This document shows positions 1-64,000 of a stretch of 64,000 nt of DNA, in pieces. Source of the DNA: Methanobacteriota archaeon (GTDB lineage: Archaea; Thermoplasmatota; E2; DHVEG-1). The stretch is from the NCBI GenBank assembly GCA_963769885.1, contig CAVYNH010000005.1:32001-96000 (forward strand). The letters are read 5' to 3'. Position 1 is the first letter of the stretch; each line of letters opens with the position of its first letter. The notes below the pieces were generated by a model that ran no database searches, had not been told where the DNA came from, and was given only the letters and a program-made list of their open reading frames with translations. Position numbers and translations under genes: made by a program.

Positions 1-125
1 CAACAGAAGGGGCTCAATCACCTCCCTTTTGAAGCAAACCAGGAAACCACACCTCAAAAAAAGCAAGGGTTGTCCAATACAATATTTATATTGGAAACAC
101 CGACGTAACCTATGAGGCTAGTGAC

Positions 126-887
126 GTGACCAAAGACGTCGTCATTGAAGCGAGAGGACTCACCAAGGTCTACCCCAGTGGCGACAAGGAATTCAAAGCC
201 CTCGACAACGTCACTTTCAAGATTTTCCGCGGTGAATTCATCATCGTCATGGGCCCCTCAGGATCCGGTAAAAGCACGCTCATGAACATCATCGGCTGCC
301 TCGACCGCCCCACCTCGGGAGAACTCTACATCGAAGGCCAAAGTATCACCGGCCTCTCTGACAGCCAGCTCGCCGAGATTCGCGGTGAAAAAAACGGCTT
401 CATCTTCCAATCCTTCAACCTCATCCCCCACCTCTCTGCCCTTCGCAACGTCGCCCTCCCCCTCGCATTTAAAGGAGTCGCACGCGTCGACCGCGATAAC
501 AAAGCCCGCGAGATGCTGAAGAAAATGGGCATCGACCAATGGGCACAGAAGCATCCCAACCAACTCTCCGGCGGTGAACAGCAGCGTGTCGCGATTGCCC
601 GCGCACTTGCCAACGACCCCGCCGTCATCATCGCCGACGAACCCACCGGCAACCTCGACAGCGCCATCGGCCAACAGGTCATGCACCTCCTTAAAGTCAT
701 CAGCAAGGAAGGCAGGACCATCCTCCTCGTCACTCATGACGCGAACCTCGTCAGCTACGGCACCCGCCTTGTCGGCATGAAAGATGGTAAGATCGTTAGC
801 GGCAGAGAACTCCGCACCCAGTTCACCAGCCGCAGAACCGCCCCTGACACCGCCGCCACCAGAAAGACTACCCGGAGGACCACATAA
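126..887 (+). CDS. ABC transporter ATP-binding protein (LolD/MacB-type)
   Basis: Walker [10 protein letters not shown], signature [15 protein letters not shown], Walker [13 protein letters not shown]-switch VTHD; TAATG overlap with the next gene. Confidence 0.95.
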
Positions 888-2200
888 TGAAGGACATCTT
901 CCGGATGAGCCTGCACACCCTGCGCTCCTACAAGCTCAGATCCTTCCTCACACTCCTCGGCGTCATCATCGGCATCGGCTCCGTTATCATCGTCACCAGC
1001 GCCGGACTCTCCGTCAGCGCCTACATCGAACAACAATGGGCCATCTTCGACCCCACCGGCATGATCATCGGCACCGGCATCTCCGGAAACCCACCCCAAC
1101 TCTCCTTCACCGGCCGCGCCTTCACCACCGATGACGTCGACAAGATCAGCGCCCTCCCCAGCGTTCGATCAGTGGCCCCCATCGGCATCTGGCCAATCGA
1201 CAGCCTCGTCCGACGCAACGGTTTATTGAACCGTTCAACCTCAGGGTCACTGACCGCGTACTGCAGCACCCCAGAGATCCTCGACGTCCTCGGCCTTCAA
1301 GTCGAACAGGGGACCATGTTCCAGGATGGAAAAAACGAGATCGTCATCAGCCACGAGATGACCCAGATCTTTGGCCTAGATAAACCACCGCTCAAAGTCG
1401 GCGACACCATTTACATCAAAAAGCTGAACCAGGTAACAACTATCAAGGCGACCATCGTCGGCATCCTTGAAAAGACGAAGAACTTCTCCATCATCAACCA
1501 ATTCCTCCATCCCACCATCATCTGCCCCATCGACCCCTACTACAAGAGCTTCTCCGCCTCGCAAGTCGGCCCCCTCCTCCACAGAGTCACTGTCTTCTCC
1601 CTCCTCTACGCCACCTCCACGGACCGGGAGCACGTCAACAGCGCAGAGACCGAAATCCTCCAATACCTCAACAGCAGCTCATCCGACGCGATAAAATACA
1701 AGGACCCCAACTCCGACTTCGTCGTCCTCACCCAGCAGTACATCATCTCCCGCATCGACCAACTCCTCAACATCGTCACCCTCTTCATCACCGCCATCGC
1801 GATGATCTCCTTAATCGTCGGCGGCATCGGCATCGCCAACATCATGTTCGCCACCGTCACCGAACGGACCAGGGAAATCGGCATCATGATGGCCGTCGGA
1901 GCAAAAAGAGGCGACATCATGAGACTGTTCCTGTACCAATCGACCGTCATCGGCACCATCGGCGCGATCCTTGGCGCGATCCTCGGCACCGTCGGCTCGA
2001 TCTTCGTCGTCCAAATCATCCAGATAAACCTCGGCACCCTCGGGGGTCTGTACGCCCTCGGAGCCATCCCAGTATTATTCGCGTACAACTGGGTCGTCCT
2101 CGCGACCTTCGTCGGCGTCCTCACCGGCATCCTCGCCGGCGTCCTCCCCGCCCTCAAGGCAGCACGCATGGACCCCGTCGTCGCCCTCCGCCACGAATAA
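887..2200 (+). CDS. ABC transporter permease (MacB/FtsX family)
   Basis: RSFLTLLGVIIGI first TM, large extracellular loop, GGIGIANIM..VTERTREIGI..A.GA motif, C-terminal PALKAARMDPVVALRHE. Confidence 0.95.
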   Translation: MKDIFRMSLHTLRSYKLRSFLTLLGVIIGIGSVIIVTSAGLSVSAYIEQQWAIFDPTGMIIGTGISGNPPQLSFTGRAFTTDDVDKISALPSVRSVAPIGIWPIDSLVRRNGLLNRSTSGSLTAYCSTPEILDVLGLQVEQGTMFQDGKNEIVISHEMTQIFGLDKPPLKVGDTIYIKKLNQVTTIKATIVGILEKTKNFSIINQFLHPTIICPIDPYYKSFSASQVGPLLHRVTVFSLLYATSTDREHVNSAETEILQYLNSSSSDAIKYKDPNSDFVVLTQQYIISRIDQLLNIVTLFITAIAMISLIVGGIGIANIMFATVTERTREIGIMMAVGAKRGDIMRLFLYQSTVIGTIGAILGAILGTVGSIFVVQIIQINLGTLGGLYALGAIPVLFAYNWVVLATFVGVLTGILAGVLPALKAARMDPVVALRHE

Positions 2201-2337
2201 AGAAAAATTTTAGGGGAGCACACCGCACTCAATATTCTCCCTCACGTACGGGTTAGGGCTCCACACCTTGACAATCATCGGTCTTCTCATACTCAATCGC
2301 ACGCTCCTCCCAGTAATCCAAAAGAAAACCCACGGGA

Positions 2338-2907
2338 TTAGGTTCTTTCCGATTCCCGCTCCTCAAGCAGACGGCCGAGGACCGCGAAATCCTGCTCCAT
2401 CGCCTCCCGTACCCGAGGGAACCGCATCCCCGCCGACGGATGGTACGTCACAAAAAACCGCACCCCACCCTTTTCAATCACCGTCCCATGGCGCTGCCGC
2501 AAATCCACTGGCCCGATAAGCGACCGCAGGCTCACCCCGCCTAGACACGCGATTACCCACGGCTTGACGAACGCTATCTGCCTCATCAGCCACAGATCCC
2601 GGCAGGTCTCCAGCTCACAAGGCCGAGGCAGCCGATTCCCCGGAGGGCGACACTTCACCATGGAGGTGATGAAAAACTCATTTCGCGTCCTGCCGATACC
2701 AGCTAATAAGACATCCAGGAATCTCCCGGAACAACCCACGAAGGGCAAGCCGACCTTGTCCTCCTCCCGGCCCGGTGCCTCACCAATGAACATGACCGGG
2801 GCAGAATCCGGGCCTACCCCCGGGACCGCATGATTACGACTCAGCCCAAGCGGACACGCAGTACACCGACGAATCCCCGCTTGAAGGTGCTCAAGGCCGG
2901 AAGTCAT
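2338..2907 (-). CDS. udg: Uracil-DNA glycosylase family 4 (Fe-S)
   Basis: CxxC-L, GEAPGREED, PFVG, VKCRPPGNR, TYHPS motifs; start chosen at ATG 2907. Confidence 0.92.
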   Translation of the reverse strand: MTSGLEHLQAGIRRCTACPLGLSRNHAVPGVGPDSAPVMFIGEAPGREEDKVGLPFVGCSGRFLDVLLAGIGRTRNEFFITSMVKCRPPGNRLPRPCELETCRDLWLMRQIAFVKPWVIACLGGVSLRSLIGPVDLRQRHGTVIEKGGVRFFVTYHPSAGMRFPRVREAMEQDFAVLGRLLEERESERT

Positions 2908-2979
2908 CCAAGAACCCAATCGTCATCACGGTTATGTAGATATCTACGACGCCAAGGACCCCCGCTGACCCACCCTTTT

Positions 2980-3717
2980 CTACCCGCGCCTGGGTCCCCC
3001 CACTCGCCGGTCCAATGCCTCCTTCAGCTCCAGGCAGTTCTCCGGGGCGTACGCGAACGCATCGTTATTGAAGTATCCATAAACGTCCTTCACCGGCAGC
3101 CGAGAAAGCAGATCAGCCCACTGCTCAATCTGCCTTCGACTGTACCTCGTCGCGTACAAGAGGGCATCGCCATGCCACCGCACATAGGCAAACGACGCCG
3201 TCGCCTTCACCACCACAGGAAGTGCGGGTGAGCTTACGATGCACAGGCCGATGTGATACCGCTCCAACAGCGCATACACCTCCTGGGTGAACCAACTCGG
3301 ATGACGAAACTCCACCACCTGAGGAATTTCAGGGTCAAGATCCGCTAAAAACGATTCCAGCAGCGGCAAATCCAACGAAAGCGAAGGCGGCAGCTGCCAT
3401 AAGACAATCCCCAGCTTCTCACCGACCAGACCCACCCGGGCATAGAACCGGGAAAGATACTCGGCAGTCCCCTTCAGTTTCTTCAAGTGCGTGACGACCC
3501 GGCTCCCCTTGAATGCAAAGACGAAGCCCTCCGGAGTCTTCTCCCGCCACCCCGTCACCATCGACTCTGAGGGAAGACGGTAGAACGAAGCATTGACCTC
3601 CACCGTGTTGAACCTCGTGCAATAAAACGACAGCCACTCCTGCCTCGGCAGACCCGAAGGATAGAACCGCCCAGCCCAATGAGCATAATACCACCCAGAG
3701 GTCCCAAGGTAGTTCAT
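2980..3717 (-). CDS. DUF72 (YecE-like) protein
   Basis: GTSGWYY.HW, FNTVEVNASFYR, QLPPS, VEFRHPSW, YVRWHG, YFNND motifs. Confidence 0.93.
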   Translation of the reverse strand: MNYLGTSGWYYAHWAGRFYPSGLPRQEWLSFYCTRFNTVEVNASFYRLPSESMVTGWREKTPEGFVFAFKGSRVVTHLKKLKGTAEYLSRFYARVGLVGEKLGIVLWQLPPSLSLDLPLLESFLADLDPEIPQVVEFRHPSWFTQEVYALLERYHIGLCIVSSPALPVVVKATASFAYVRWHGDALLYATRYSRRQIEQWADLLSRLPVKDVYGYFNNDAFAYAPENCLELKEALDRRVGGPRRG

Positions 3718-3835
3718 AGCTAGATAGGAATGCGCTCAGTGGTATTTGATGGTAGCATCCTCGAAAGGAGGCAAGAGTGACACGACCATTGGGATGCACT
3801 GCTGCTCCCTGCATCATTGAGGAAAGAAATTTACG

Positions 3836-5341
3836 CTATTCCTCGCTTACAAGGGTCGTAAGCGGGTTCGTGCCCTCCGCCATAAGTTTCAAATACGGCT
3901 TAAGTCTCCGATCCATGTAATGAATAACCAGGCTGATAGCCCACCGCTTCGAGAAGCCCATATTCATCGCCCGCAGGTTCTCGTCGGCGATTGACTGCAC
4001 CCATTTGAAATCGTGGCTAATGCAGGCCTCGAGCAGCTGCCAATGTAGCGGCGTCATATCCTTCAGGCTGAAAAACCCCTTACCTTGCAGGTTACCGAGC
4101 GGGACGAAAAACAAGGGAACAATCAGCGATTTGTACTTCCCAAGTTCATGGACCAAGTCAATCGTCTGCTGAACATCCTCGGGCTCCTCACCGGGAAGCC
4201 CCATAATCAAGGTCTCCGCCGGAATCCACTTGTTATCCGCCAGAATCTGGTGCGACTCCCGGACCACATCCGGCCAAGCCTCCGGGACAAACGGCTTGAC
4301 CTTGCCTTTCATCTGATTCTCAATGATCCGCGGGGAGCCGGTCTCCAAGCCCACCTGCCCGCTGATGAACGGACAGGACCGCGAGCCCACCTCCATTATC
4401 TCAGAGAGCTGCTGAATGAGCGATGGCTTCGCGACCACGGAGGCATGCGCGAAATGGCTGATCCCCACGACTGACGTCAGCTTCCGGCCTTCGGTGAAGA
4501 GCGCGGCCACCTCCGTCTCATTGGGCGTGAACCCCTTCGCCTTGTACCGCAGGACATCCTCCGAATGGAAGATGATTCCCGCCCCCGCCTCGACGTTCAC
4601 GCGCGCCTCCTGCATGATATAGTCAATCGGAAAACACCGGTAATTCGTCATCGTCGGAGTACAGAACCGACAGCCGCGACCGCAGCCCCGGGCGATCTCG
4701 ATAAGACCGTTCAGAGTCGGCCGGCGAATCAACGGAATATCCTTGAGCGGGACCACTTGGCCTTGAACGACCATCGGCAGTTTCTCCCCCGCAATAGCCT
4801 TCTTAATCAGTTCGACAGCGGTGATCTCCCCCTCCCCGATGACCACGCTGTCAACGCCCATCTTCGCCATAATCCGCTCATCGGTCAGCTGCCAGGCCCC
4901 AGAGCCACCGACAATCACCTTCACCCCGTAGATACGAATTTGGGGCGTGCGAATGAGCTTACGGAAATAAATTGAGGTGTACGTTTCTCTCCCACCCAGC
5001 TGGCCGAACGTCGTGGAGGCCGGACCGAGCCCGAGGGGATCATGGGTGGTGATACCGACGACCTTGGTGTCCTTGGTGATAGTCTTGCCGAGCATCTGCG
5101 AAGGGACGACGGCGACATCGTCCTCGGAAAAGCCGTTGGCAAGCAAGGCTGCTTCGATCTTCCGCTGACCGCAGTGCGCGTAACGCAGTCGGCCATCTTC
5201 AACTTTGGAGTCGGGAAGGAAGATTCGTTCATACAGCCACTTCGGGATGAAGCTTGGGGCGCATGCCGCAAACCCAAGGAATATATGCCGATTATATTCA
5301 GAAGTGAGTGTCCTGTCGGCCGTTAAGATGACTTTGACCAT
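3836..5341 (-). CDS. Archaeal B12-binding-type radical SAM protein resembling the Grs/Gms tetraether-lipid-modifying family
   Basis: CGRGCRFC radical SAM motif; N-terminal LTADRTL..Y..FLGF, G.RKIEA.L and HDPLGLGP segments recalled as typical of this family. Radical SAM call is firm, subfamily call is tentative. Confidence 0.7.
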   Translation of the reverse strand: MVKVILTADRTLTSEYNRHIFLGFAACAPSFIPKWLYERIFLPDSKVEDGRLRYAHCGQRKIEAALLANGFSEDDVAVVPSQMLGKTITKDTKVVGITTHDPLGLGPASTTFGQLGGRETYTSIYFRKLIRTPQIRIYGVKVIVGGSGAWQLTDERIMAKMGVDSVVIGEGEITAVELIKKAIAGEKLPMVVQGQVVPLKDIPLIRRPTLNGLIEIARGCGRGCRFCTPTMTNYRCFPIDYIMQEARVNVEAGAGIIFHSEDVLRYKAKGFTPNETEVAALFTEGRKLTSVVGISHFAHASVVAKPSLIQQLSEIMEVGSRSCPFISGQVGLETGSPRIIENQMKGKVKPFVPEAWPDVVRESHQILADNKWIPAETLIMGLPGEEPEDVQQTIDLVHELGKYKSLIVPLFFVPLGNLQGKGFFSLKDMTPLHWQLLEACISHDFKWVQSIADENLRAMNMGFSKRWAISLVIHYMDRRLKPYLKLMAEGTNPLTTLVSEE

Positions 5342-5477
5342 TCATTCGCCAGCTGAGTTTTTTCCACTTTTCCGCTAATATCGTTGGCCCTCGCGATTGC
5401 CAACCAGTTCATGACTTGATAATGATTATGGTCCAAAGCCATAATTATACTTCGTATAAAAATAATTTTCAATAGCT

Positions 5478-6470
5478 CTAACCGATATTAATTCCCTGAG
5501 ATTCCCAGGGGGAATCCTCAATTGCATCCAAGAGATGGAGGAATTGCGTATAATCCATCAAGTGGACATCCTTGTTGAAGGCCGCCCGGTTCTTGATTTG
5601 GGGAAAATAGTGGGAAAAGATGCTACGCATGCGGATCGCCGCCCCCCAGGGCGTGTACATGTCTGTGAGATAGTCAAAGTGCTGTCGGCAGATGGTTCGT
5701 CGTTCCTCGAAGCTCGGGGGATGGTACGCGGTGTGGTCGATGGTTGCTTGAATCTCAGGGATAAGCCAGGGGTTGCCGATGAGGAAGCGGCCGGGCATGA
5801 TGCCAGCGCATCCCGTCTTGTTGATGACAGCGCGGGCGATTTCTCCGGAGGAGACCCCGCCGTTTGCGATTACTGGGATGGAGAGCGCGGAGACGGCCTG
5901 CGCGATGCAAGGGTGGTTCACGCTTGGGGAGGTCTTGTGATCTCCGGTTCTGCCGTGGATAGTAATCGCTGTCGCGCCAGCCTCCTGCAGGCGCAGGCAG
6001 AGGGGGAGGTAGTTTTGCAGTGCGGGTGTTGGCCCGAGGCGGATCTTTGTAGTGACCGGGACATCCACCGCCTGGACGAGGGCTGAGACAAGGTTTGCGG
6101 CGTGCTGCTCGTTGAGCATGAGAGCGACGCCCTCGCCGCGCCGTGTGACCTTTGGGGCGGTGCAGCCCATGTTGATGTCGATGAACTCGAAGCCTTCGTT
6201 GACGAGGATCTTGGCGGCGGCAATCATTTCTTGGGGGTCTCGCCCGAGGAGTTGGGCGCCGTTGAGGTGGCCGCCGTCGGTCCGGCGCAGCATCTGCATC
6301 GTGCGTTTGTTGTGTCTGACGACGGCTGAGGTGTGGACCATTTCGGTGGTGATGAATCCGGGGTGGAAGGAGGAGAGGATGACGCGGTACGGGTAGTCGG
6401 TGTACCCCGTGAGGGGCGGTAGGATGCATCGGGTTTTCTGGAGGGTCTGCAGGAACCTGGCGTTGGTCAT
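5478..6470 (-). CDS. tRNA-dihydrouridine synthase (Dus family)
   Basis: P(L)TGYTD.PYR, IDINMGC, KIRLG, IHGRT, PVIANG, GR..IGNPW; likely start ATG 6470 (the track extension overlaps the upstream gene). Confidence 0.9.
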   Translation of the reverse strand: MTNARFLQTLQKTRCILPPLTGYTDYPYRVILSSFHPGFITTEMVHTSAVVRHNKRTMQMLRRTDGGHLNGAQLLGRDPQEMIAAAKILVNEGFEFIDINMGCTAPKVTRRGEGVALMLNEQHAANLVSALVQAVDVPVTTKIRLGPTPALQNYLPLCLRLQEAGATAITIHGRTGDHKTSPSVNHPCIAQAVSALSIPVIANGGVSSGEIARAVINKTGCAGIMPGRFLIGNPWLIPEIQATIDHTAYHPPSFEERRTICRQHFDYLTDMYTPWGAAIRMRSIFSHYFPQIKNRAAFNKDVHLMDYTQFLHLLDAIEDSPWESQGINIG

Positions 6471-6529
6471 TCTCGAGGGGCAGCATCGCGGCTCTATGAT
6501 AAAAGGTCTTCCGAACAATCCAAGGGGAG

Positions 6530-7741
6530 CTATTCGTAGCGGACCGCTTCGATGGGGCTCATCCGGGCGGCCTTCCATGCGGGGTACAAACTGGAGAGAA
6601 CACCAACAATAATAGAGACAGTGACCGCAAGAACCACCGACATCAATGTAATAATAGGAGTAAGGCTCGATGAGCTGCCCATGCTCATAAAACTATTAAG
6701 GATCATCGTGAGTCCCTGAGATCCGAACACCCCAAGGATAATGCCGATAATACCCCCAATGCTACTGACTAGCATTCCTTCGATAATAAAGATACTCATG
6801 ATATCTAGATTGGTCGCACCAATCGCCTTCATAATACCAATTTCTCTTGTCCGCTCCATCACTGAGGTTAACATCGTGTTCATAATTCCAATCGAAGCAA
6901 CGACTAGCGCGATGGAGGCAATAGCGACAAGCACCAACTGAAGGATTCCTATAATAGTTTGAACAGTCTTGAGAATAGAGGTCATCGTGGTTGCTGTCGC
7001 AAAGTCTTTCTGCCCATGGTTTCCATTGATGGTATTCTGAATGGAGGTAGCAATGGATTCTGCGTCATTGACGTTGTATACACGCAAATAAATTAAACTG
7101 ATGTTACTCTGACCAGTTAATTTCTGAAAATCTCGGGAACTCATCAACACCGATGTATCTGAGGACACACCGCCGAAACCCTGTTTCCCGAAGATACCAC
7201 TAACAAAAAATTTCTCACCGTTAATCTTAATCCTTCCACCAATAGAAATCGTAGCATCAAAGGTATCATGTGCGATCCCATAGCCAATCATAATTTCATT
7301 CTGTTCGCCTTCGGTGAGGAATCCCCCCGCCTCAAGATTCTGACTCGCATATTGAAGCCGCATGACACTGATATCCATACCAGTCAGAGACACAATCGTC
7401 GTCTGGCCGTTATATTCCGCGAGACCAGAACCAGATAGCTGTGTACTCACCTCTTTAACACCTTGGAGACGCTGAACATCCGCAATATCGCGCTGCGTAA
7501 AATATTCACCAGTTGAGCCTCCACCGCCAAAGGAGGAAAACATATTTCCTCCGGTAGACACAATGATGACATCTGATAACGACGAGAGCTCTCCGGTGAC
7601 CGCCTGCTGCATACCCTCTCCAAGGGCCATCAGAGAGATAATCGCCATGATACCAATCGCGATGCCAAGCAATGTCAGCAATGACCGCGACATGCGATTC
7701 CTGAGATTTTTCACAGCGATCTTCACATGATCCCTAAACAT
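6530..7741 (-). CDS. ABC transporter permease (MacB/FtsX family)
   Basis: RSLLTLLGIAIGI, IGIMNTM..SVMERTREIGIMKAIGA, PAWKAARMSPIEAVRYE; start ATG 7741. Confidence 0.95.
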   Translation of the reverse strand: MFRDHVKIAVKNLRNRMSRSLLTLLGIAIGIMAIISLMALGEGMQQAVTGELSSLSDVIIVSTGGNMFSSFGGGGSTGEYFTQRDIADVQRLQGVKEVSTQLSGSGLAEYNGQTTIVSLTGMDISVMRLQYASQNLEAGGFLTEGEQNEIMIGYGIAHDTFDATISIGGRIKINGEKFFVSGIFGKQGFGGVSSDTSVLMSSRDFQKLTGQSNISLIYLRVYNVNDAESIATSIQNTINGNHGQKDFATATTMTSILKTVQTIIGILQLVLVAIASIALVVASIGIMNTMLTSVMERTREIGIMKAIGATNLDIMSIFIIEGMLVSSIGGIIGIILGVFGSQGLTMILNSFMSMGSSSSLTPIITLMSVVLAVTVSIIVGVLSSLYPAWKAARMSPIEAVRYE

Positions 7742-57101: not shown

Positions 57102-57791
57102 TTACTCGATGGTGTCGGGGATCTCGCGAATCTCGCTAAAGAAGAGGTAACCGTCGATTTGCTGGCGGTAGTCGTCGTAGCCCTGCTGCTCCTGGCTGAT
57201 GATATCCTCCAGGCCGGTGAGGTTCTCGAGCAACTCGGCGACGGCCGTGCCATTGCCCAAGGAAAGGTTCTCAGCCGCCTGGCGCAGCAGCGCGGTCGCA
57301 TTGTACCGCAGCAAGGAAATGTTGCGGCCGGCGTTCGCAAAGCCGATATAGTAGCCGATGACTTCCAAATACTTCGAGGTGTTCGTCATCCCGCGGGCGG
57401 TGATGAAGTAGGGGACCGATGCGTTGAAGTTCTGGGCCGCCGTAAGGTACTGGCCTGCGGCCTCCGAGCAGTTCTCCAGGCTCTGGGGAATCAGCGAGAG
57501 GTTCTCCGTGTTCAAGGCCAGATTGAACCAGAACAAGGCGAAGTCGAAATGATAGTTCGCGATTTCCCGGGTCTCGCGAGCCGCATCTAACTTGATCGAG
57601 CCCTGGAGCATATGGTTGGTGAAGTTCTCGTTGCGGCTATTCAGGCCGACGATCTCGTTGAAATGCTGCGTATTGAGGATGTCGATTTGAGAGCGATTCA
57701 CGATGTCGGCCGCGAAAAAGGTGATAATGACGGCACCGACCATGATGGCTACCAGCATGATAAACATGTTCCTAGTGAATTCACGGGCCAT
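57102..57791 (-). CDS. Membrane-anchored helical hypothetical protein at the end of the pilus operon
   Basis: N-terminal TM helix followed by long amphipathic helices with N-x-S/T sequons; 12 nt from the upstream gene. Confidence 0.8.
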   Translation of the reverse strand: MAREFTRNMFIMLVAIMVGAVIITFFAADIVNRSQIDILNTQHFNEIVGLNSRNENFTNHMLQGSIKLDAARETREIANYHFDFALFWFNLALNTENLSLIPQSLENCSEAAGQYLTAAQNFNASVPYFITARGMTNTSKYLEVIGYYIGFANAGRNISLLRYNATALLRQAAENLSLGNGTAVAELLENLTGLEDIISQEQQGYDDYRQQIDGYLFFSEIREIPDTIE

Positions 57792-57803
57792 TGGACTCAG
57801 ACC

Positions 57804-59768
57804 TCACGAGATGGGGAGCAGCGTCAGCGTGTGCTCATCCCAGAAGAGGATTGGACAGACCGTCGGCTCTCGATTCGACGTCCAGACGACCTGGGAGAGA
57901 TTTGACAAAGCCGGGCCCTGACGGGGCTCTGTGGCTTGACTGATGTACCCAGTCGCATGGTTCACTAATCTGTAACTAAGGGTTGATGCGTCGATCTTCT
58001 CCACCCGCAGGTTATACCAGCCGTTGTATAAATACCCGTTTGGGCTGCCGGAGGACAGCGTAATCCAGCCGGAGGCCGTCTGGTACGACAGCCGCGGTTG
58101 GTACGCCGCGGAGCCGATCGCGCCAGCGACGTACACGTACTCGAACTTGAGCTTCGCGATGGTCACCCCGCCGAGCGCCTTGAAGTCTAGAGTGAGGTCC
58201 GCGGGCTCGCTGCTGTTGCCGCAGGTGAACCAGCAGGACCAGGCGATGAGCTCGCTGTTCAACGAAGTGAGGGTATAGTTCCAGTATTGTGCCCCGGCGG
58301 AGGCGCGCAGCTTAGTCTTGAACGATTGGGCTGTGGAGAAGAAGTAATCAGAGGCGACCTCGAAGTTGCTGGTGACGTCCCGCTGGCTGGTTTCGAACCA
58401 GACCTGGCCGCAATAGGAGTCGAGGGCTTTACCGCCTACGGTGTCGTCGGCGTCCGCAAAGTCTTCTATGAGGGTCGTCGGCGGCGCGTAGGACCAGACT
58501 GTGATGACCGTAGGGTCGTCGTCCCCGGTGTCGCCGTCCCCGTCCTGGTCAATGAGGTCGTCGATGGCCGGGTCGTCAGTAAGTTCGCTTTTCTCGTTGA
58601 TCCCATCTTCGTTTTCGTCCCAGTACACAGTTCCCTGGTTGGAGATCTTTGTGGAATTTATCAGTGAATGGTTGACGGTGACCTGGAAGCTTATTGCGAC
58701 GCTGCTCTGTGAGGGGATGGCGCCGTCCCAGTAGACTTTTTTCGCGGTGGCATCATAGGTGATGGTCCCAGAGCCGCATGTTGCGGAACCGGGGACGTAT
58801 TGGGAGTACCGTGGGATGTGGTCTTCGAATTCATGGCCCGGGTTGTTGTTCTGGTTCGCAGTCCCGATGTTGCTGAGCGTGAGGTCGTATTCGATGATGT
58901 CGCCGCATTGGACGAGGCCGCCGTTGAGGTCCACGGCGGTTTTGCGGGCCATGATCTGGGCTTTGGCGTAGCCGGAGAAGTGCATGTTGTCGATGAAGGC
59001 ACCGCTGTTGAACTGGTTGTCACCAGCATCGAAGAGGTCTATGGTGACGGTGACCACCTCGTCTGGGGAGACGGGGTGTTCACGGCCGACGAGTGCGGTT
59101 GCGCCGGCGTCGGCCCCGTGGACAACCGGCGTGGTCTGTAGCCAGTCTACGCCTGTAGGGTTTCCATCCTGCGCATAGAGGTTGAAACCGGTGCCCAGCA
59201 AGGGTGGGTCGTTGGCGTGCAGGACGAAGTCGCCGCCGTTGACGTCGATGAGGTAGGTGGAGAGGCCTTGAGAGGGCGAGTTGACGGAAATGGTGAGCTT
59301 GTCGTTGTATTGGGTGCCGATGTAGTCGGGGTATTCGACGGTATAGAATTGGACGTCATAGTAGAGGAAGTGCATATAGTGGGGGACGCGCAGCTGCATC
59401 TGGAGGTTGGCCTCATCTCGTGGGGTGCCATATTGGCCTCCCACGAACCAGTCGCCGCGTTCGTTGCCGGGGTTCAGGCCGTTGGTGGTGGCGAATGTGA
59501 GGTCGGCGCGGCCAGTGCTGAACCAGGCGAAGGTGGTGCCTTCGGTGGGGATCATGGCGCCGCGTGAGGCGAGAACGGTGGACAGGCGGTGGCCGACAGT
59601 GTCGCGATCCCAGTAGCTGGAGCTGACGAGGGTAGATTGGTTGGTCAGCATGGCGACGGCGAGGTCGTGGCCGTCGTAGGATCCTGCTCTGGCGATGGGT
59701 GCGAGTGCCGGGATGATGGTGGCGGTCAGCATGAGTGTGATTGCTATGGCGAGTAGGTGTCTAGTCAT
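57804..59768 (-). CDS. Secreted adhesin-like protein (choice-of-anchor L-like, DUF11 and Asp-rich loop)
   Basis: Signal peptide from ATG 59768; EYPDYIGTQYND..DAGD..FNSGAFID; K...D.NGG....GD.IEY.L...N.G..D.IP....YVPGS (DUF11); DQDGDGDTGDDDPT. Confidence 0.75.
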   Translation of the reverse strand: MTRHLLAIAITLMLTATIIPALAPIARAGSYDGHDLAVAMLTNQSTLVSSSYWDRDTVGHRLSTVLASRGAMIPTEGTTFAWFSTGRADLTFATTNGLNPGNERGDWFVGGQYGTPRDEANLQMQLRVPHYMHFLYYDVQFYTVEYPDYIGTQYNDKLTISVNSPSQGLSTYLIDVNGGDFVLHANDPPLLGTGFNLYAQDGNPTGVDWLQTTPVVHGADAGATALVGREHPVSPDEVVTVTIDLFDAGDNQFNSGAFIDNMHFSGYAKAQIMARKTAVDLNGGLVQCGDIIEYDLTLSNIGTANQNNNPGHEFEDHIPRYSQYVPGSATCGSGTITYDATAKKVYWDGAIPSQSSVAISFQVTVNHSLINSTKISNQGTVYWDENEDGINEKSELTDDPAIDDLIDQDGDGDTGDDDPTVITVWSYAPPTTLIEDFADADDTVGGKALDSYCGQVWFETSQRDVTSNFEVASDYFFSTAQSFKTKLRASAGAQYWNYTLTSLNSELIAWSCWFTCGNSSEPADLTLDFKALGGVTIAKLKFEYVYVAGAIGSAAYQPRLSYQTASGWITLSSGSPNGYLYNGWYNLRVEKIDASTLSYRLVNHATGYISQATEPRQGPALSNLSQVVWTSNREPTVCPILFWDEHTLTLLPIS

Positions 59769-59775
59769 GGTCCCT

Positions 59776-62112
59776 TCAACCCCCGATGTAGTGATGTATG
59801 AGTAGTGAGAGGGATTCGGAGTAGAGGTCGTCGCGGATGCTGTTGTTTGGGGTGACGCGGCAGACCCAGGTTTGGCCAAGGCTGAGTGATTCGGAGACGA
59901 GGACACTGCGGTCTGAGGAGCCGGTGCAGGAGCAAAGGTAGTCTTGGTAGCATTGTTCTGATGGGAGGATGGTTGGGTAGATCTTGACGTCGTCGATGGT
60001 GCCGGTGAAGTTGTTCTCTCCTCCGAGGGGGATGCCGGTGACTTCCAGGTCGTCAATGGCAAAGAAGCTGGTGAGGGCGCTCGTGCGCCATTTGAACTGC
60101 AGCGTCAGGCTGGTCAGGGCCCGGGGCAGAGTAATGGTGACTTTGGCCCAGGGGCTCTGTCCGCTGTAGGTGGGATTTGTGATTTCGTAGAGGGGAATCC
60201 ACTGGCTGTTGTTGCGGTAGTAGAGGCCGAAGAAGTCGGCGGCGGCGGTGTTCTTGCGGCTGTACCAGAATGAAATCTGGAAGTCTTTGTAGCCGGTGAG
60301 TGGGATGGCGGTGCGGTTGTAGATGGCGTATTCGGGGTCGAAGTCACCGGTGCCGCCCAGCGAGTAGCTGCCGGTGTGGGGGACGAGGATGGAGGTTGGG
60401 AGGAGGTCGAAGTCGCATTCGAGGCGGCCGTAGCTGGTGGCGTTGAGGTAGAGTTGGTCGATGTAGACTTGGCTGTTGTCACCGTCAGCGTTGCACATGA
60501 AGCGGATGAACATGTTGGTGGGGAAGCGGTAGGTGGATTCGTTGACGTAGACAATCTTGTGGTACCAGGTGCTGGTTGCGTAGCCGCTGGGGTAGGTGAT
60601 GGTGAGGATGTTGGTCCAAGCGGTGCCGTTGTAGTATTGGAGCCACCAGGTTTTGCCGGTGGACCAGGTGTTGCCGCGCCACATCCACCAGAAGTCGATT
60701 TTGAGGGATTTGTAGCCTGGTGTGTCCATGTCGATGGGGGTGGTGAGTCGGAAGGAAGAGGCGACGCCGCTGTCGTCGCGGATGCCGGCAGAGGCGGTGC
60801 CTTCGTGTTTGTAGGTGGCGGAGCGGTAGGCGTCGGCGGAGGAGCCGTTGCTGCCGGGGATGTAGTTGCCCCAGCCGGTGTTGAAGTTATCGTACCGGAG
60901 AGTGGACCAGGTAGGGGTCTGGCTGCCGCTGGTGTTCTGTTCTTTCCAGGTGTCGCGTTCGGCGGTGGTTTCGAAGCCGGTCGTGAAGAGGGGACGGCGG
61001 GTGGAGGGGCCGGTGCCGGTGCCGATCTTGCCGGCGGGTCGATCGCCGGAGCCGAGGGGGCGGCCGGCGGTATGGGCTTGGGTGGTGGCGTCCTGGAGGC
61101 CATCGAGGTAGATGGCGGCGATGCCGGTGGTGGCGTCGTAGGTGGCGGTGGCGTGGTGCCAGAGGTTGTCGGTGACGATGCGGGTGCCGAGGAGGTCATT
61201 GGTGTCGTCAGAGGCGGTGGTGCTCCATTTGAGGCGGCTGTCGCTGACTGCGAGTTCGAAGTAGTCGCTGCGGTTGTAGGAGAGGATGGTGCCAGAGGCT
61301 TGGGTGGTTTTGAACCAGACTTGGATGGTGACCTGGGTGAGGGTGGCGGTACTGAAGGGGTAGGGGAGGGTGATGGCGTCGTGGCCGCTGTATTGGTAGG
61401 CACCGCCGAGGCGGCCGTTTTGGGTCCAGGTGGGGCCGGTGATGGTGCCGTTATGGTTCAAGGTGGAGTAGTCTTTGGTCGTGTCAGTGGTCTGGGTATC
61501 AAAGGGGAGGAGCAAGCAGGCGCGTGGGATGTAGGCACCGCCGTTGTATCGCATCCAGTTGTAGATGTAGGAGGTGGGGAGGGGGAAGATGGAGGGGTGG
61601 ATGGTGTAGCTGTAGCAGATGAGGTCTTCGTCGGGGGTGTCGGTGAGGAGGGTAGAGATGGACATAGGATCGAGGATGTGGGGGACTGGGCCGGGGGGTG
61701 TGGGTTTGGGTTTGAGGGTGCCTTGGAAAATGATCTCGGTGGTGCCGTCGGTGTTGCGGTTGACGACGGTGACGTTGATTAATTCGTCAGGGGCGAGGTG
61801 GTAGTCGGTGAGGGGGATGGTATCACCCATTTGCCAGGGATCGGTGTGATGGTAGGCGACGCTGTCTTGGCCTTGGGTGACGAGGATGTCGTAGTCGGTG
61901 ATGGTGGTACCGCCGACGTGTTGGAGGATGGGGGTGGCAGTCTCGTTGACGTAGCCGGCGATCTTGATGTTGGATTGATGGGAGGGCATGGGGAGGGGGA
62001 AGACTCTGAGGTAGATGACGGCGAAGGCGGCGAGGGCGATGACAACGAGGAGGAGTACGGCGATGACTTCTGATACGGCATAGGGTCTTCGGTAAGAAGG
62101 TTTGTTGTGCAT
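59776..62112 (-). CDS. Giant archaeal type IV (minor) pilin with LamG and MAM-like domains
   Basis: Class III-like signal RRPYA|VSEVIAVLLLVVIA, L.H.GG pilin motif; LamG WHH.TATYD..YLDG..F.G.IDDV.IY. Confidence 0.85.
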   Translation of the reverse strand: MHNKPSYRRPYAVSEVIAVLLLVVIALAAFAVIYLRVFPLPMPSHQSNIKIAGYVNETATPILQHVGGTTITDYDILVTQGQDSVAYHHTDPWQMGDTIPLTDYHLAPDELINVTVVNRNTDGTTEIIFQGTLKPKPTPPGPVPHILDPMSISTLLTDTPDEDLICYSYTIHPSIFPLPTSYIYNWMRYNGGAYIPRACLLLPFDTQTTDTTKDYSTLNHNGTITGPTWTQNGRLGGAYQYSGHDAITLPYPFSTATLTQVTIQVWFKTTQASGTILSYNRSDYFELAVSDSRLKWSTTASDDTNDLLGTRIVTDNLWHHATATYDATTGIAAIYLDGLQDATTQAHTAGRPLGSGDRPAGKIGTGTGPSTRRPLFTTGFETTAERDTWKEQNTSGSQTPTWSTLRYDNFNTGWGNYIPGSNGSSADAYRSATYKHEGTASAGIRDDSGVASSFRLTTPIDMDTPGYKSLKIDFWWMWRGNTWSTGKTWWLQYYNGTAWTNILTITYPSGYATSTWYHKIVYVNESTYRFPTNMFIRFMCNADGDNSQVYIDQLYLNATSYGRLECDFDLLPTSILVPHTGSYSLGGTGDFDPEYAIYNRTAIPLTGYKDFQISFWYSRKNTAAADFFGLYYRNNSQWIPLYEITNPTYSGQSPWAKVTITLPRALTSLTLQFKWRTSALTSFFAIDDLEVTGIPLGGENNFTGTIDDVKIYPTILPSEQCYQDYLCSCTGSSDRSVLVSESLSLGQTWVCRVTPNNSIRDDLYSESLSLLIHHYIGG

Positions 62113-62197
62113 CTGCCTACCCTGAAGTTCTTTCTGTTGCGCTTTGTTTATATGGGCTTCGTGGCATTTTCTCAGGGGTGTCATTTTATTGGGTTTT

Positions 62198-63085
62198 TTA
62201 GAACAGGAGTTTGAAGATGATGAAGCTGATGATGACGAGGATGAAGCCTTGGCGGATGCCTGCGGAGAGTTTGCCTTCCATCATGAAGCCGCCGAGCATG
62301 CCGCCGCCGAGGGATTGGACGAAGACGAAGGTGAAGAGCATGTTTTTGACTTCGACGGGGTCGATCTGGGCGATTCTGAGGTTGCCGATGGCCTTGCCCG
62401 CCATTTTGCCTTGCAAGCCTTCGATGGCTTGGAAGATGGTGCCGTTGATGATGAGGATGACGGCGAGGAAGACGAAGAAGCTGATGAAGATGACGATGCT
62501 ATACATCGACATCTCGGTGCGGCGCTGCTGCTCGACTCTCCGTATTTGGTCGAGTTCTTTGGCGGCGGCGTTGAAGACACTGCTTGTGTTGCCGCCGATT
62601 TCGAGGGCTTTATTGATCGTGATGGCGAGGCGTTTGACTTCGTTGCTGTTGAGGCGTTCGCCGAAGTTGGTGAGGGTGTCGGTGACGGGGATGCCCCAGG
62701 AGAGCTGGGCGCTGACGGTTTTGAGCTCTGGGGTGAGGGCGCCGTATTCGCCTTCCGCAGCGCTTCGTATGGAATCGTAGATGGTCATGCCGGAGGCGCT
62801 AGAGTTGGCGATGTCTCGGAGGAAGTCGGGGAGTTTCTCCATGACTTCGCGCTTGCGTTTCTGTTTTTTGCTATTGTAGAAACCGAGGGGGCCGATGCAG
62901 CCCAGGACGCCGAAGACGAGGTAGTCGACAGTGGACAGATACGGTAGGATGGGGTGGTTGATCATGGCGAAGAAGCCGAAGACGAAGAAGATGCTGGATA
63001 TCAGGATGCTGCCGGCGATGATGAGGTCGACGGTCTTGTCTTTGCCGTAGTGGCGGCTGACGTCGTATTGTTTCGTATGGGCTAT
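62198..63085 (-). CDS. Type II secretion system F family (TadC-like) pilus platform protein
   Basis: LPDFLRD.A....SGM...I...A.G.YG.L..E....LSWG; probable ATA start at 63085 (first ATG is 62965). Confidence 0.88.
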   Translation of the reverse strand: MAHTKQYDVSRHYGKDKTVDLIIAGSILISSIFFVFGFFAMINHPILPYLSTVDYLVFGVLGCIGPLGFYNSKKQKRKREVMEKLPDFLRDIANSSASGMTIYDSIRSAAEGEYGALTPELKTVSAQLSWGIPVTDTLTNFGERLNSNEVKRLAITINKALEIGGNTSSVFNAAAKELDQIRRVEQQRRTEMSMYSIVIFISFFVFLAVILIINGTIFQAIEGLQGKMAGKAIGNLRIAQIDPVEVKNMLFTFVFVQSLGGGMLGGFMMEGKLSAGIRQGFILVIISFIIFKLLF

Positions 63086-63945
63086 ACGTCCTCACCCATC
63101 CCTGATTTCATCATGACGTAGAAGCCGAAGTAGGCCATCGGCAGAATCATGAGCGACAGGACATAAAGGAAGCTGAAGGAGATACCGCCGCCGGTGAGGC
63201 CCATGACGGAGAAGATGATGACGAGAAAGAGGGGGAAGGCGATGACGGTGACGACGAAGCTTTCGGCCATGATGGCGAGGCTTTCGAGGTTTTTTTTGCG
63301 TTCTTGGAGGTCGTCGAACATGTAGCGGTCGACGCAGCGGTCGAAGAAGGGGGCGAGTTCGCTGCCGGATTGGAGGACTTCGACGATGCCTTGGAGGAAT
63401 TCCTTGAATTTGCGGGAGGGGCTGATGGCGATGGCGTTTTTAAGGGCGGTGACGGCGTCAACGCCCATGAGCTCGATTTCGGTGGTGATCTTTTTAGCTT
63501 CTTTTTGTACTTCGCCGTAGAGAGGGATGCCGGCGAGGGTGCCGAAGATCTCAGAGGGGCTGACACCGGCGACGGACATGGTGTTGATGAAGTTGGCGAC
63601 GTAAGGGAGATGTAGGTCTATCTTTTTTCCGCGGGCTTTGGCTTTGGAGGCGGGGAGCTGCAGGTAGACGAGGCTCATGAACAGGGGAATCGTCGTGGAG
63701 ATTACCAGGAGGAGTAGGGAGGTCGTGGTGGTTGGGAGGAGGATGTAAAGGACGAGGGTGGAGAGGAAGCTTGAGGTGAAACCAACGAGGATGTTCATGA
63801 TGACCATGGAGTAGTATTCCTGGTACACCATGCTGATGTCCGCTTTTTCGAGGAGGCGGTTTTTGCTGGTTTCACTGATGTTGAGTCGTGCGAAGATGGG
63901 GGAGAAGACCCGGCGGCAGAAGCGGGTGTAGTTCGTGGATTTCAT
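63082..63945 (-). CDS. Type II secretion system F family (TadB/TadC-like) pilus platform protein
   Basis: ID..LPY....M..AG, YGE...E...I......G.D...AL, SPS..F..FL.G.....SG, L...AE. Confidence 0.9.
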   Translation of the reverse strand: MKSTNYTRFCRRVFSPIFARLNISETSKNRLLEKADISMVYQEYYSMVIMNILVGFTSSFLSTLVLYILLPTTTTSLLLLVISTTIPLFMSLVYLQLPASKAKARGKKIDLHLPYVANFINTMSVAGVSPSEIFGTLAGIPLYGEVQKEAKKITTEIELMGVDAVTALKNAIAISPSRKFKEFLQGIVEVLQSGSELAPFFDRCVDRYMFDDLQERKKNLESLAIMAESFVVTVIAFPLFLVIIFSVMGLTGGGISFSFLYVLSLMILPMAYFGFYVMMKSGMGEDV

Positions 63946-64000
63946 TGCGCAAGCTCCTTTCTGGCGATTTCAAGGACGCGGTCGGGGAACTTGCGGTATT
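63942..64000 (-). CDS. 3' end of a probable type II/IV secretion ATPase (partial)
   Basis: ...YRKFPDRVLEIARKELAQ* with ATGA overlap into the platform gene; Y..P..V ending and position fit archaeal pilus ATPases. Confidence 0.55.
   Translation of the reverse strand, partial: YRKFPDRVLEIARKELAQ

Follow-up and report, generated by a model that had tools for sequence, protein, structure and literature searches.

Strand composition in the genome of an uncultured wetland archaeon alternates in kilobase arms whose polarity follows position

The window analysed here, a stretch of 64,000 nucleotides from the genome of an uncultured wetland archaeon (a 7-contig metagenome assembly of 2.09 Mb), has a plus strand that is by turns C/A-rich and G/T-rich, which raises the question of whether this polarity belongs to the genes or to their place, and what kind of process would produce it. 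The skew is confirmed as real and far above chance. The standard deviation of GC skew in 1-kb windows is 0.263 in the window, against a binomial expectation of 0.042, and 0.24 genome-wide (2085 windows), and extremes of ±0.97 are reached at four-fold degenerate sites. Four 60-nt hand counts given in an earlier note on this DNA were recounted with identical numbers; the five C-rich intervals named there have GC skews of -0.23 to -0.29 and AT skews of +0.12 to +0.23, and the seven G-rich intervals have GC skews of +0.23 to +0.31 and AT skews of -0.12 to -0.39. Flips were placed by cumulative G-C at four-fold sites, which gave G>C flips at 13.28, ~29.0, ~42.24 and 50.8-51.1 kb and C>G flips at 5.01, 19.30, 35.08, 46.89 and 55.52 kb, in agreement with the coordinates proposed earlier.

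The plus strand is C/A-rich at 1..5012, where two genes on the plus strand (126-2200; -0.86 and -0.71 at four-fold sites) are followed by three minus-strand genes with the same plus-strand polarity, namely udg (2338-2919), a DUF72 gene (2980-3717) and a radical SAM gene (3836-5341), all discordant. The G/T-rich domain 5013..13282 (four-fold skew up to +0.94, peak at 10.5-12.2 kb) is broken by a low-GC, near-unskewed island of MacB/FtsX-type transporter genes (6530-10191, GC 0.40-0.47), which is probably a recent insertion. A G>C flip, or source, in an AT-rich divergent spacer of 138 bp (13291..13428, GC 0.30) leads to the C/A-rich domain 13429..19299, in which plus-strand genes, including those for an ABC-transporter ATPase and PhoU, have four-fold skews of -0.58 to -0.86 (local windows down to -0.97) and precede the discordant minus-strand ScpB gene (18534-19208). 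The G/T-rich domain 19300..29035 contains the SMC gene (20074-23691), saturated at +0.92 to +1.0, and its skew dips to ~0 (25.2-26.2 kb) around a low-GC gene of the plus strand. The C/A-rich domain 29036..35078 begins without a spacer at an overlapping gene junction (29040-29043) and holds the discordant minus-strand MFS gene (29040-30566), a minus-strand tRNA-Phe (33008-33081), a discordant minus-strand ORF (33114-33434; k +0.84; 92 % orthologue in the sister species), Nop5 (33553-34449) and the 3' end of the minus-strand tgtA (34769-37126). G/T-rich polarity at 35079..42240 covers the discordant plus-strand genes nadC (37534-38475; k +0.62) and ftsZ (38554-39690; k +0.33) and fades across nusG/spt5 and L11, with minor flips at 40.3 and 41.0 kb. 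The C/A-rich domain 42241..46888 starts near the 5' end of the gene at 41098-42450 and the spacer 42451-42576, includes the discordant minus-strand PHP gene (42577-43497) and, at 43.8-45.3 kb, plus-strand genes with saturated skew (-0.92 to -1.0), and ends within the minus-strand C25 peptidase gene (46291-49110). Two minus-strand genes occupy the G/T-rich domain 46889..50858 (four-fold skew +0.4 to +0.8); another source lies in the AT-rich divergent spacer 50859..51110 (GC 0.26 at 50900-50999), and the C/A-rich domain 51111..55520 (-0.7 to -0.95, fading) ends inside the plus-strand DUF2341 gene (54060-56843). The final G/T-rich domain (55521..64000), with a minus-strand tRNA-Asp (56946-57020), is weak at 55.7-58.5 kb, broken over a stretch of uncertain annotation (58.8-59.6 kb) and saturated (+0.9 to +1.0) at 60.4-62 kb. 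The C>G flips claimed to be internal to tgtA, the C25 peptidase gene and the DUF2341 gene were thus located at 35.08, 46.89 and 55.52 kb.

That the skew is partly independent of gene orientation, as the earlier note held, was borne out by a genome-wide regression at four-fold sites, in which R2 was 0.21 for gene strand, 0.47 for the neighbours' skew and 0.57 for both. Coding-strand skew is correlated at +0.60 between same-strand neighbours and at -0.47 and -0.45 between convergent and divergent neighbours, opposite-strand neighbours having the plus-strand polarity in common, and beside a strongly skewed flank the skew carries across 64 % of convergent and 47 % of divergent junctions. The genes already called discordant (udg, DUF72, MFS, PHP and nadC) are all real by Pfam, and the radical SAM gene, ScpB, FtsZ and the ORF at 33114-33434 were added to them. 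Solid Pfam matches were obtained for 19 of the 20 strongest discordant genes, including MCM, UvrB, enolase, AspRS and PriS, and the "wrong" polarity occurs in Pfam-verified housekeeping genes (MCM, enolase, AspRS, FtsZ, nadC, and ribosomal proteins S2 and L30). Along a ribosomal-protein cluster with all genes on one strand, the skew is -0.95, +0.2, -0.94 and +0.8 in succession. The coding strand is the C-rich strand in ~69 % of genes, an excess that could reflect start sites in promoter-bearing spacers, selection for co-orientation, or both.

At four-fold sites, concordant genes have A.08, C.83, G.05 and T.04, and discordant genes A.03, C.06, G.80 and T.12; the discordant spectrum is the reverse complement of the concordant one, and two-fold codons behave likewise. 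Intergenic spacers track the flanking skew (r=0.86, n=151), amino-acid usage shifts along with it, and the tRNA set has C34 tRNAs reading G-ending codons. The C:G ratio, ~17:1 on average and up to ~70:1 locally, is near-saturated, and pyrimidines make up 87 % of four-fold sites on the C-rich strand, so that strand-biased transversions are needed besides transitions. Arm polarity is very probably a property of position and of mutational origin, with neutral sites driven to C on one strand and to G on the other.

The flip points are conserved in the sister species, where skew is correlated at r=0.92 over 17 orthologues and the ribosomal cluster shows the same wave, in an independent assembly. 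In the relative G014 the L3-L2 skew has the opposite sign with identical synteny, G008 and G018 show almost no skew across the sampled syntenic regions, and the pattern is weak or absent in the low-GC relatives sampled. The "many fixed sites" of the earlier note are accordingly fixed at genus level but redrawn between genera on the same synteny. Inversions do not account for the discordant genes, because an inversion carries the gene's skew along, and the order and orientation tgtA-nadC-ftsZ-nusG-L11-PHP are kept to family level. Strain contigs from other wetland samples are colinear over the region, with ~565 differences per 20 kb (~2.8 %). A genetic correlate of the skew was not found among the relatives compared; two Orc1/Cdc6 genes are present in all of them, skewed or unskewed, and EndoV, PolB and NucS occur in both skewed and unskewed relatives. 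On this positional, intergenic and conservation evidence, selection on codons, the direction of transcription, inversions and artefacts of assembly are rejected or disfavoured.

About 290 arms (median 5.5 kb) tile the 2.09-Mb genome, in blocks of 4-10 kb heedless of gene direction, and within arms neutral positions run to C, with A next, on one strand and to G, with T next, on the opposite one. There are ~145 switches of each kind, and like switches lie ~11 kb apart. G>C switches tend to lie in long open spacers between genes, where tRNA genes are over-represented, and show a twofold excess in intergenic DNA (36 % vs 18 %); C>G switches are mostly gene-internal. The placing of G>C flips at AT-rich gaps held at 13.3 and 51.0 kb (the divergent spacers, GC 0.30 and 0.26) and failed at 29.0 kb, where two minus-strand genes overlap (29040-29043) and GC is at least 0.52 throughout. 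The view that G>C flips are sharp and C>G flips gradual survives as a genome-wide tendency (very sharp steps, 44 G>C vs 18 C>G), but the average arm is a near-symmetric plateau, with sinks on average nearly as sharp as sources. Single arms are also plateaus, in which skew is not maximal beside the source and, if anything, rises slightly toward the sink, and the mean amplitude of 7-10 kb arms (0.55) equals that of 3-5 kb arms, with no fall with length up to 10 kb, so that the genome is tiled and not dotted with decaying zones. The source-anchored mean profile has faded by ~5.5 kb. Except for T-arm k-mers of tRNAs, no motif common to the source spacers was found. The sense strand upstream of tRNA genes is G-rich even with a co-oriented upstream gene (+0.15 vs a genome mean of -0.25), at divergent junctions the skew outlasts gene co-orientation, to ~4.3 kb, and sharp G>C flips also occur in convergent spacers between Pfam-verified genes, without an annotated gene start. 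Replichore-scale GC skew is absent from the genome.

The regression, conservation and non-inversion results support a process of mutation or repair that is strand-asymmetric and acts from many sites. Among the mechanisms listed earlier, dense local initiation is kept as the best guess, and R-loops and simple resection are disfavoured. The explanation as a whole, positional arms with outward local synthesis, is offered with a little under even confidence, and its mechanism, locally initiated, origin-independent synthesis outward from open intergenic sites, more tentatively still. DNA synthesis or unwinding would start at such sites and proceed outward both ways, each arm would record the prevailing direction of that process, and C and A would accumulate on the strand that leads away from the start site. 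Replication would be locally initiated, ORB-independent and recombination- or bubble-primed, and not organised as two replichores; the asymmetry may come from a split in which PolD makes the leading and PolB the lagging strand, provided that deaminated bases are caught on one template only. This polarity is the one reported for neutral sites at a Haloferax origin, where the cumulative GC skew of third positions and non-coding DNA peaks (PMC12999951), and for the A/C-rich leading strands of yeast (PMC3459929), and for Euryarchaeota with a retained oriC, RadA-dependent replication independent of origins has been documented (PMC11005403). In the spacer next to orc1, two ORB cores flank an AT-rich stretch, and the spacer is a G>C flip like the others; genome-wide, exact ORB cores are confined to the orc1 locus, and 1-mismatch matches are at control level. 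Against local initiation, ~145 initiation zones in 2 Mb would to our knowledge be unprecedented for a prokaryote, known replication skews are far weaker than the near-saturated asymmetry here, and the near-equal sharpness of sinks and sources is contrary to the prediction of random termination.

An appreciably less probable account invokes recurrent breaks or nicks at open intergenic sites, 5'-3' end resection and frequent homologous recombination between genome copies, in which the surviving 3'-ended strand, being single-stranded to either side of the break, would lose C and A by deamination and become G/T-rich, and the strand away from the break C/A-rich. The polarity fits ordinary ssDNA deamination without special assumptions, both amino bases being depleted on the same strand, and sources in long open spacers and near tRNA genes, the predominance of G>C among very sharp steps, the fading of the source-anchored profile and the expected turnover of hot spots between genera are all as seen. 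Exposure should decay with distance, yet the arms plateau at equal amplitude in both length classes; tiling is near-complete, so no unskewed zones separate hot spots, and the break frequency per site would have to be very high.

Strong, inherently bidirectional promoters that fire RNA polymerase outward, with read-through and antisense transcription carrying the bias into opposite genes, are an unlikely cause, although the 69 % excess, the intergenic enrichment of G>C flips, the G-rich sense strand upstream of tRNA genes and the reach of skew beyond co-orientation at divergent junctions would suit them. Polarity reverses twice within the co-oriented, presumably highly expressed ribosomal cluster and is opposite there in another genus; L30, S2 and their neighbours are G-rich on the coding strand, discordance is strong in MCM, enolase, AspRS, primase and FtsZ, convergent spacers without an annotated gene start contain sharp G>C flips, and 47 % of divergent junctions beside a strong flank have no flip. 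Non-template exposure or transcription-coupled repair would give a polarity opposite to the C-rich coding strand, and the majority polarity is contrary to that expectation. Transcription-associated skews, for example those reported to be opposite at gene ends in unicellular fungi (PMC3315797), resemble the present case in a coding strand C-biased in most genes and in switches near promoters, but here, as the ribosomal cluster, MCM and enolase show, the sign is not tied to transcription of one strand, and the bias spans kilobases across gene boundaries.

Codon-usage selection, by a tRNA pool favouring C-ending codons in highly expressed genes, would account for third-position GC skews of -0.6 to -0.9 in most genes (crude first gene call) but is refuted, and highly improbable, given the mirror-image preference of discordant genes for G-/T-ending codons, ribosomal proteins in both classes, the same polarity in intergenic DNA and the C34 tRNAs for G-ending codons. 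A mosaic of recent inversions or of segments gained by horizontal transfer, or an artefact of assembly or binning, has in its favour one unskewed, foreign-looking low-GC island (6.5-10.2 kb) and the 7-contig metagenome assembly, and is for the pattern as a whole refuted and just as improbable in view of the family-level synteny, the sister-species assembly and the divergent strain contigs; nor can an inversion turn a C-rich coding strand G-rich.

Outward local synthesis may be compared with known systems. As here, the yeast and human "N-domain" origin skews (PMC3459929, which also summarises the human case) have many switch points per chromosome, neutral-site skew independent of gene strand and one kind of switch with a tendency to the sharper jump, and the leading strands of S. 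cerevisiae and K. lactis are A/C-rich, like the strand leaving the putative start site. Replication-associated skews are generally known to be far weaker than the near-saturated amplitude here (±0.97); here like switches are ~11 kb apart, both kinds are nearly equally sharp on average, the switches have no origin-recognition motif, and the link to replication is a proposal. In Haloferax an origin at the cumulative neutral-site GC skew maximum has the polarity of the G>C flips here, including that at the ORB/orc1 locus, but is reported at whole-chromosome scale, unlike these kilobase arms (PMC12999951). The same study concluded that archaea are largely without strand-specific mutational skews, and this lineage contradicts that conclusion. 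Bacterial replichore skew is likewise a mutational asymmetry that shows in intergenic DNA as well as at four-fold sites, with most genes oriented along it, but has two switch points (origin and terminus) and a G-rich leading strand, against ~145 switches of each kind here, an opposite sign at the single recognisable origin and no replichore-scale signal. In vertebrate mitochondria the H strand is G+T-rich and the L strand A+C-rich. The strength there is, by general knowledge, comparable, the asymmetry here is likened to their ssDNA type, and in both C and A are depleted on one strand and "wrong"-strand genes have mirrored codon and amino-acid usage; mitochondria have one polarity, whereas hundreds of domains alternate in this 2-Mb chromosome, the sink is C:G (87 % pyrimidines at four-fold sites of the C-rich strand) and not a balanced A/C versus G/T, and no gradient with distance is seen. 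No description of kilobase strand-bias domains of this kind was found for archaea. The skew bears the mark of a strong DNA process that is tied to place and works in one direction.

The 2.09 Mb genome (seven contigs, GC content 0.55), which belongs to an uncultured Thermoplasmatota archaeon whose nearest records are sediment and wetland MAGs, is under a place-bound, strand-asymmetric mutation pressure arranged in bipolar units. An earlier note, made by eye from the window, which spans 32001-96000 of contig C5, had described a strand skew flipping every 5 to 10 kb, partly independent of gene orientation. Its four 60-nt hand counts were all exact on recount, and the sign was right for each of its intervals, with GC skews of -0.23 to -0.29 for those called C-rich and +0.23 to +0.31 for those called G-rich; AT skew was opposite in sign to GC skew in every one. 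The standard deviation of 1-kb GC skew in the window is 0.263, compared with 0.042 from sampling alone, and because it stays at 0.24 over the whole genome the skew is a genome-wide property. Flips of the plus strand from G-rich to C-rich (G>C flips, termed sources) were located in the window at 13.28 kb and 50.8-51.1 kb, both AT-rich divergent spacers, at ~29.0 kb, an overlapping gene junction that is not AT-rich, and at ~42.24 kb; the proposal that such flips fall at AT-rich gaps therefore held for the first two sites and failed at ~29.0 kb. The opposite flips (C>G, termed sinks) were located at 5.01 kb, 19.30 kb, 35.08 kb, 46.89 kb and 55.52 kb, the last three within tgtA, a C25 peptidase gene and a DUF2341 gene, respectively, where the earlier note had seen the skew change inside genes.

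Genes were called with a two-class codon model supported by Pfam checks, which was used for all later analyses. A single-class, self-trained caller gave a picture of third-position C-rich coding strands only, favoured C3-rich ORFs and overlooked udg, DUF72, nadC and PHP, all of which were Pfam-confirmed; an amino-acid-composition score was dropped as too weak. The two-class model recovered all 14 Pfam-verified genes of the window and rejected four shadow ORFs. Genes with a G-rich coding strand are termed discordant and those with a C-rich coding strand concordant. Solid Pfam matches were obtained for 19 of the 20 longest strongly discordant genes, and matches for 9 of 10 ribosomal-cluster genes and 7 of 10 genes beside sharp flips, the other three being small ORFs without a match. 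Gene finders, and codon-based predictors of expression or HGT, break down in this genome if fitted to one codon class. The annotation of window positions 57804-60062 is uncertain, as a 752-aa minus-strand ORF with only a weak DUF7927 match (E 0.003) rivals three short plus-strand ORFs chosen by the codon model; a local dip and reversal of the skew at 58.8-59.6 kb lies within this stretch.

Coding-strand GC skew at four-fold degenerate sites (k) spans -1 to +0.9 over 1685 genes and is negative in 69 % of them. Between adjacent genes k is correlated at +0.60 for same-strand pairs, -0.47 for convergent pairs and -0.45 for divergent pairs, and since opposite-strand neighbours are anticorrelated, plus-strand polarity is common to neighbours regardless of their orientation. 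The partial independence from gene orientation claimed earlier was borne out by regression of plus-strand four-fold skew, in which the gene's own strand gave an R2 of 0.21, the skew of its neighbours 0.47 and both together 0.57 (joint coefficients -0.19 for own strand and +0.80 for neighbours). Where a gene is opposite to both neighbours and these have a clear polarity, 62 % carry the neighbours' sign, and from a strongly skewed gene end the polarity crosses the junction in 64 % of convergent and 47 % of divergent cases. Of the 52 genes in the window, 12 are discordant, nine of them clearly, and strand there accounts for 39 % of the variance. Discordant genes include nadC, FtsZ, ScpB, udg, DUF72, PHP and an MFS transporter in the window, and MCM, UvrB, enolase, AspRS and the primase subunit PriS elsewhere in the genome. 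An SMC and ScpB cluster lies on the minus strand of the window (18534-23691). SMC (20074-23691) is saturated at k -0.92, codon polarity is reversed (k +0.27) in ScpB (18534-19208), which follows ~0.9 kb downstream, and the intervening ORF (19221-20084) contains the 19.30-kb C>G flip, all inside one apparent operon.

The strongest case against transcription direction or expression is the ribosomal-protein supercluster (contig C4, 271868-288939), 17 kb long with all genes on one strand. Polarity reverses twice along these co-oriented genes, k being -0.95 in L3, +0.21 in L14, -0.88 in L6, -0.94 in L19e, +0.03 in S5, +0.42 in L30, +0.64 in S2 and +0.69 in an M50 peptidase gene. Sharp G>C flips were also found in spacers separating co-oriented genes and in spacers where Pfam-verified genes converge with their 3' ends facing, one between flavodoxin and DUF4097 genes (contig C6, 45250-45405) and another adjoining AspRS. 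Across genes and operons, the sign of the skew does not follow the transcribed strand, as judged from the low R2 for strand, the supercluster and the discordant housekeeping genes.

The skew is mutational and not selective. At four-fold sites of the coding strand, the most concordant genes have A.08, C.83, G.05 and T.04, compared with A.03, C.06, G.80 and T.12 for the most discordant, so that the two spectra are reverse complements; C/(C+T) at NNY codons is.94 in concordant and.24 in discordant genes, and G/(A+G) at NNR codons is.26 and.95, respectively. Spacers inside a domain share the polarity of their flanks (r=0.86, n=151, mean ±0.30), and the skew is present at neutral sites whatever the gene strand, as in replichore-type replication skew. 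Amino-acid usage also shifts, with Thr, His, Pro, Asn and Ile increased where coding strands are C-rich and Val, Gly, Arg and Glu where they are G-rich. Translational codon-usage bias was rejected, as there are two mirror-image codon classes, ribosomal genes occur in both and spacers are biased too; avoidance of G-ending codons for want of C34 tRNAs was ruled out by the presence of C34 species in the tRNA set. C and A are both depleted on the same, G-rich strand, as in the deamination asymmetry of single-stranded mitochondrial DNA; this is seen in composition, with substitutions unpolarised. Four-fold sites on the C-rich strand are 87 % pyrimidine, a proportion that would need strand-biased transversions beside C>T and A>G changes on the opposite strand; the endpoint of the pressure is an oriented C:G pair.

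An IS-like element of ~710 bp with seven near-identical copies offered only 11 singleton changes for polarising recent mutations, too few to be informative. A ~708-bp element with seven copies on contig C7 (at 64565, 76927, 105013, 179826, 274399, 335590 and 457859; 98.4-100 % identity) and older copies of 85-89 % identity at C7:69706 and C4:357804 is a small mobile element, recently active and confined to that one contig. Contig C1 ends in a 9.7-kb inverted duplication (1-19446; 98.9 % identity, 86 mismatches), either real or an assembly fold-back, which contains internal repeats of ~1.15 kb at ~81 % identity. In the window, positions 45000-45900 (gene 44973-45932) are matched by many unrelated public contigs with joints and loose ends, at a depth of 91 compared with ~35 elsewhere, which suggests a domain that is widely conserved or repeated, and not the copy number in the organism itself.

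Cumulative G-C curves gave about 154 G>C and 155 C>G flips genome-wide, and four-fold sites resolved 291 arms (stretches of one polarity between consecutive flips) with a median length of 5.5 kb (IQR 3.7-8.1 kb). Autocorrelation is negative at 4-7 kb for the skew but shows no such lobe for gene strand. Up to 10 kb, arm amplitude (mean absolute skew 0.55-0.60) does not depend on length; the source-to-sink profile is a flat plateau with similar shoulders at both ends; no grading of asymmetry with distance from the source, of the kind left by mitochondrial-type exposure of single-stranded DNA, was seen over these lengths. No replichore-scale G-C trend, and no chromosome-scale V or sawtooth, was found on the three largest contigs, and contig C6 has only a vague T-A and gene-strand trend at that scale. 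A low-GC island in the window (6530-10191; GC 0.40-0.47 compared with ~0.57 around it) encodes ABC transporters of the MacB/FtsX type and is nearly free of strand skew despite a strongly G-rich host arm, which without the island measures ~4.8 kb. The island looks like a recent insertion that has yet to take on the local polarity, and could act as a clock for the process.

Signs are mixed for a sharp jump at sources and a gradual change at sinks, as in eukaryote-like multi-origin replication skew: very sharp steps number 44 for G>C and 18 for C>G (20 and 7 at a higher threshold), but the mean arm has similar shoulders at both ends. G>C flips are enriched two-fold in intergenic DNA (36 % compared with 18 %), which C>G flips are not. 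Spacers at sources are longer (225 compared with 138 bp), and tRNA T-arm k-mers, present in 11 of 51 source spacers and 43 of 873 spacers in the comparison set, were the only enrichment to come from the motif search at flips that the earlier note had proposed; no other common motif was found in the 51 source spacers. DNA upstream of tRNA genes has a G-rich sense strand (mean +0.35), and where the upstream gene is co-oriented the value is still +0.15, compared with a genome mean of -0.25. From divergent junctions polarity lasts to ~4.3 kb, while gene co-orientation is gone by 2.5 kb; at convergent junctions polarity does not outlive gene orientation. Sinks lie nearer the midpoint between two sources than a uniform placement predicts (sd of r 0.19 compared with 0.29); since sources are placed likewise between two sinks, and since the detection threshold limits the sd, this test does not discriminate.

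The polarity of the sources was calibrated at the 402-bp spacer (C6:261631-262032, outside the window) upstream of orc1/cdc6 (C6:260359-261630), with NucS adjacent. This spacer is a predicted replication origin, having a T/A-rich stretch between two ORB-type cores (TTCGAGTGGAAA and TTCCAGTGGAAA) with a G-run beside each, and the core TTCSAGTGGAAA has two exact copies in the genome, both in this spacer. It is a G>C flip, with skews of +0.85 on the left and of -0.21 and -0.41, in discordant genes, on the right; its arms are of ordinary local size, and as a single locus it shares its polarity with the other sources. The neutral-site polarity at a Haloferax origin (PMC12999951) and the polarity of yeast leading strands (PMC3459929) are the same. 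No exact ORB core was found at any other source, and one-mismatch matches over the whole genome number 25 compared with 22 for a control pattern; sources other than the orc1 locus are not ORB origins.

The flips proved to be conserved in the sister species of the same genus (G001), in which k of 17 window orthologues agrees with r=0.92; the amplitude there is about half and the ribosomal cluster has the same wave. On identical synteny in other genera, L3-L2 have the opposite sign in G014 (+0.30 to +0.83), the pattern in G015 is different, and G018 and G008 are nearly flat. The sites are thus kept within the genus and positioned afresh in other genera. The opposite-neighbour signature, scored on samples of 34-100 kb per relative, is present in G001 (GC.52), G014 (.44) and G015 (.42), weak in G003 (.31; closed genome) and absent from G008 (.34; closed genome) and G027 (.40; same order). 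The trait seems to be of within-family origin and to go along with a rise in GC, a link consistent with a pressure that ends in C:G. No genetic correlate was found among 21 family genomes, with EndoV, PolB and NucS occurring in skewed and unskewed relatives alike and exactly two Orc1/Cdc6 genes in all 21. Discordant genes are not recent inversions, the refutation that the earlier note had named, for the order and orientation of tgtA(-), nadC(+), ftsZ(+), nusG(+), L11(+) and PHP(-) are kept in G001 and four other genera, and an inverted gene keeps its own skew, so inversion cannot turn a C-rich coding strand G-rich. The sister-species assembly was made independently and has the same pattern, and strain contigs from other wetland samples are colinear over the window, with ~565 differences per 20 kb (~2.8 %). 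Conserved order, the independent assembly and these colinear contigs together counter inversions, an HGT mosaic and artefact. In window positions 43001-63000, compared with the wetland strain (run X1), ~565 of 20,000 positions differ; among the sites listed (40 of 594), 39 were classified, which are unpolarised and give no usable estimate of asymmetry, and of the 33 that lie in coding sequence 17 are non-synonymous, a large proportion at 2.8 % divergence.

The arms probably record the prevailing direction of a DNA transaction. Locally initiated, ORB-independent replication is the first-ranked candidate, held tentatively and at a little below an even chance, and it is favoured because its polarity agrees with the orc1 locus and the literature and because plateaus tile the genome with no decaying zones. 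RadA-dependent, origin-independent replication has been documented in Euryarchaeota in which oriC is still present (PMC11005403), and a division of labour has been described between PolD on the leading and PolB on the lagging strand (PMC13136892); such a division could produce asymmetry if deaminated template bases were intercepted on one template only. A fuller version, possible if rather doubtful, is that the chromosome is copied not as two replichores but from well over 100 preferred ORB-independent zones in open intergenic DNA, primed by recombination or transcription bubbles, with a leading/lagging asymmetry strong enough to write fork direction into nearly every silent site. Resection at recurrent breaks would fit in chemistry and polarity but not with plateau-shaped arms, and we consider it unlikely. 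Transcription would account for the promoter and tRNA association, yet it is contradicted by the ribosomal cluster, by the reversal of sign between genera and by its own expected sign, and is very improbable as the cause. Selection, inversions and artefact are essentially excluded. A substantial remainder of probability stays with a mechanism that is none of these.

A 2026 survey attributed archaeal skews to gene orientation and the genetic code, and saw little capacity for strand-specific mutation or repair in archaea (PMC12999951); this genome is a clear counter-example to that general statement. Strand compositional asymmetry is of a known kind, but the literature searched, mostly outside subscription journals, holds no description of an archaeal chromosome tiled in this near-saturated, gene-independent, bipolar way on a kilobase scale. 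To our knowledge the reversals within the ribosomal cluster, the redrawing between genera on identical synteny, the reverse-complement site spectra, the plateau-shaped arms, the ORB/orc1 calibration and the within-family link to GC are new. In this organism the strand-specific pressure dominates silent sites, alters the use of amino acids and seems to go with a large GC increase inside one family, and the direction of the process, whatever its nature, can be read base by base from the sequence of uncultured organisms. Were the cause not local replication, an unknown kilobase-scale, one-directional DNA transaction would exist. If the cause is locally initiated replication, how and how much archaea use origin-independent replication in nature, a long-standing question, would become testable from metagenomes. 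Should the reading with well over 100 zones be true, natural origin-independent replication in archaea could be mapped directly from the genome sequence, and the increase in GC from ~31-44 % in relatives to 55 % in this genome would follow from this pressure.
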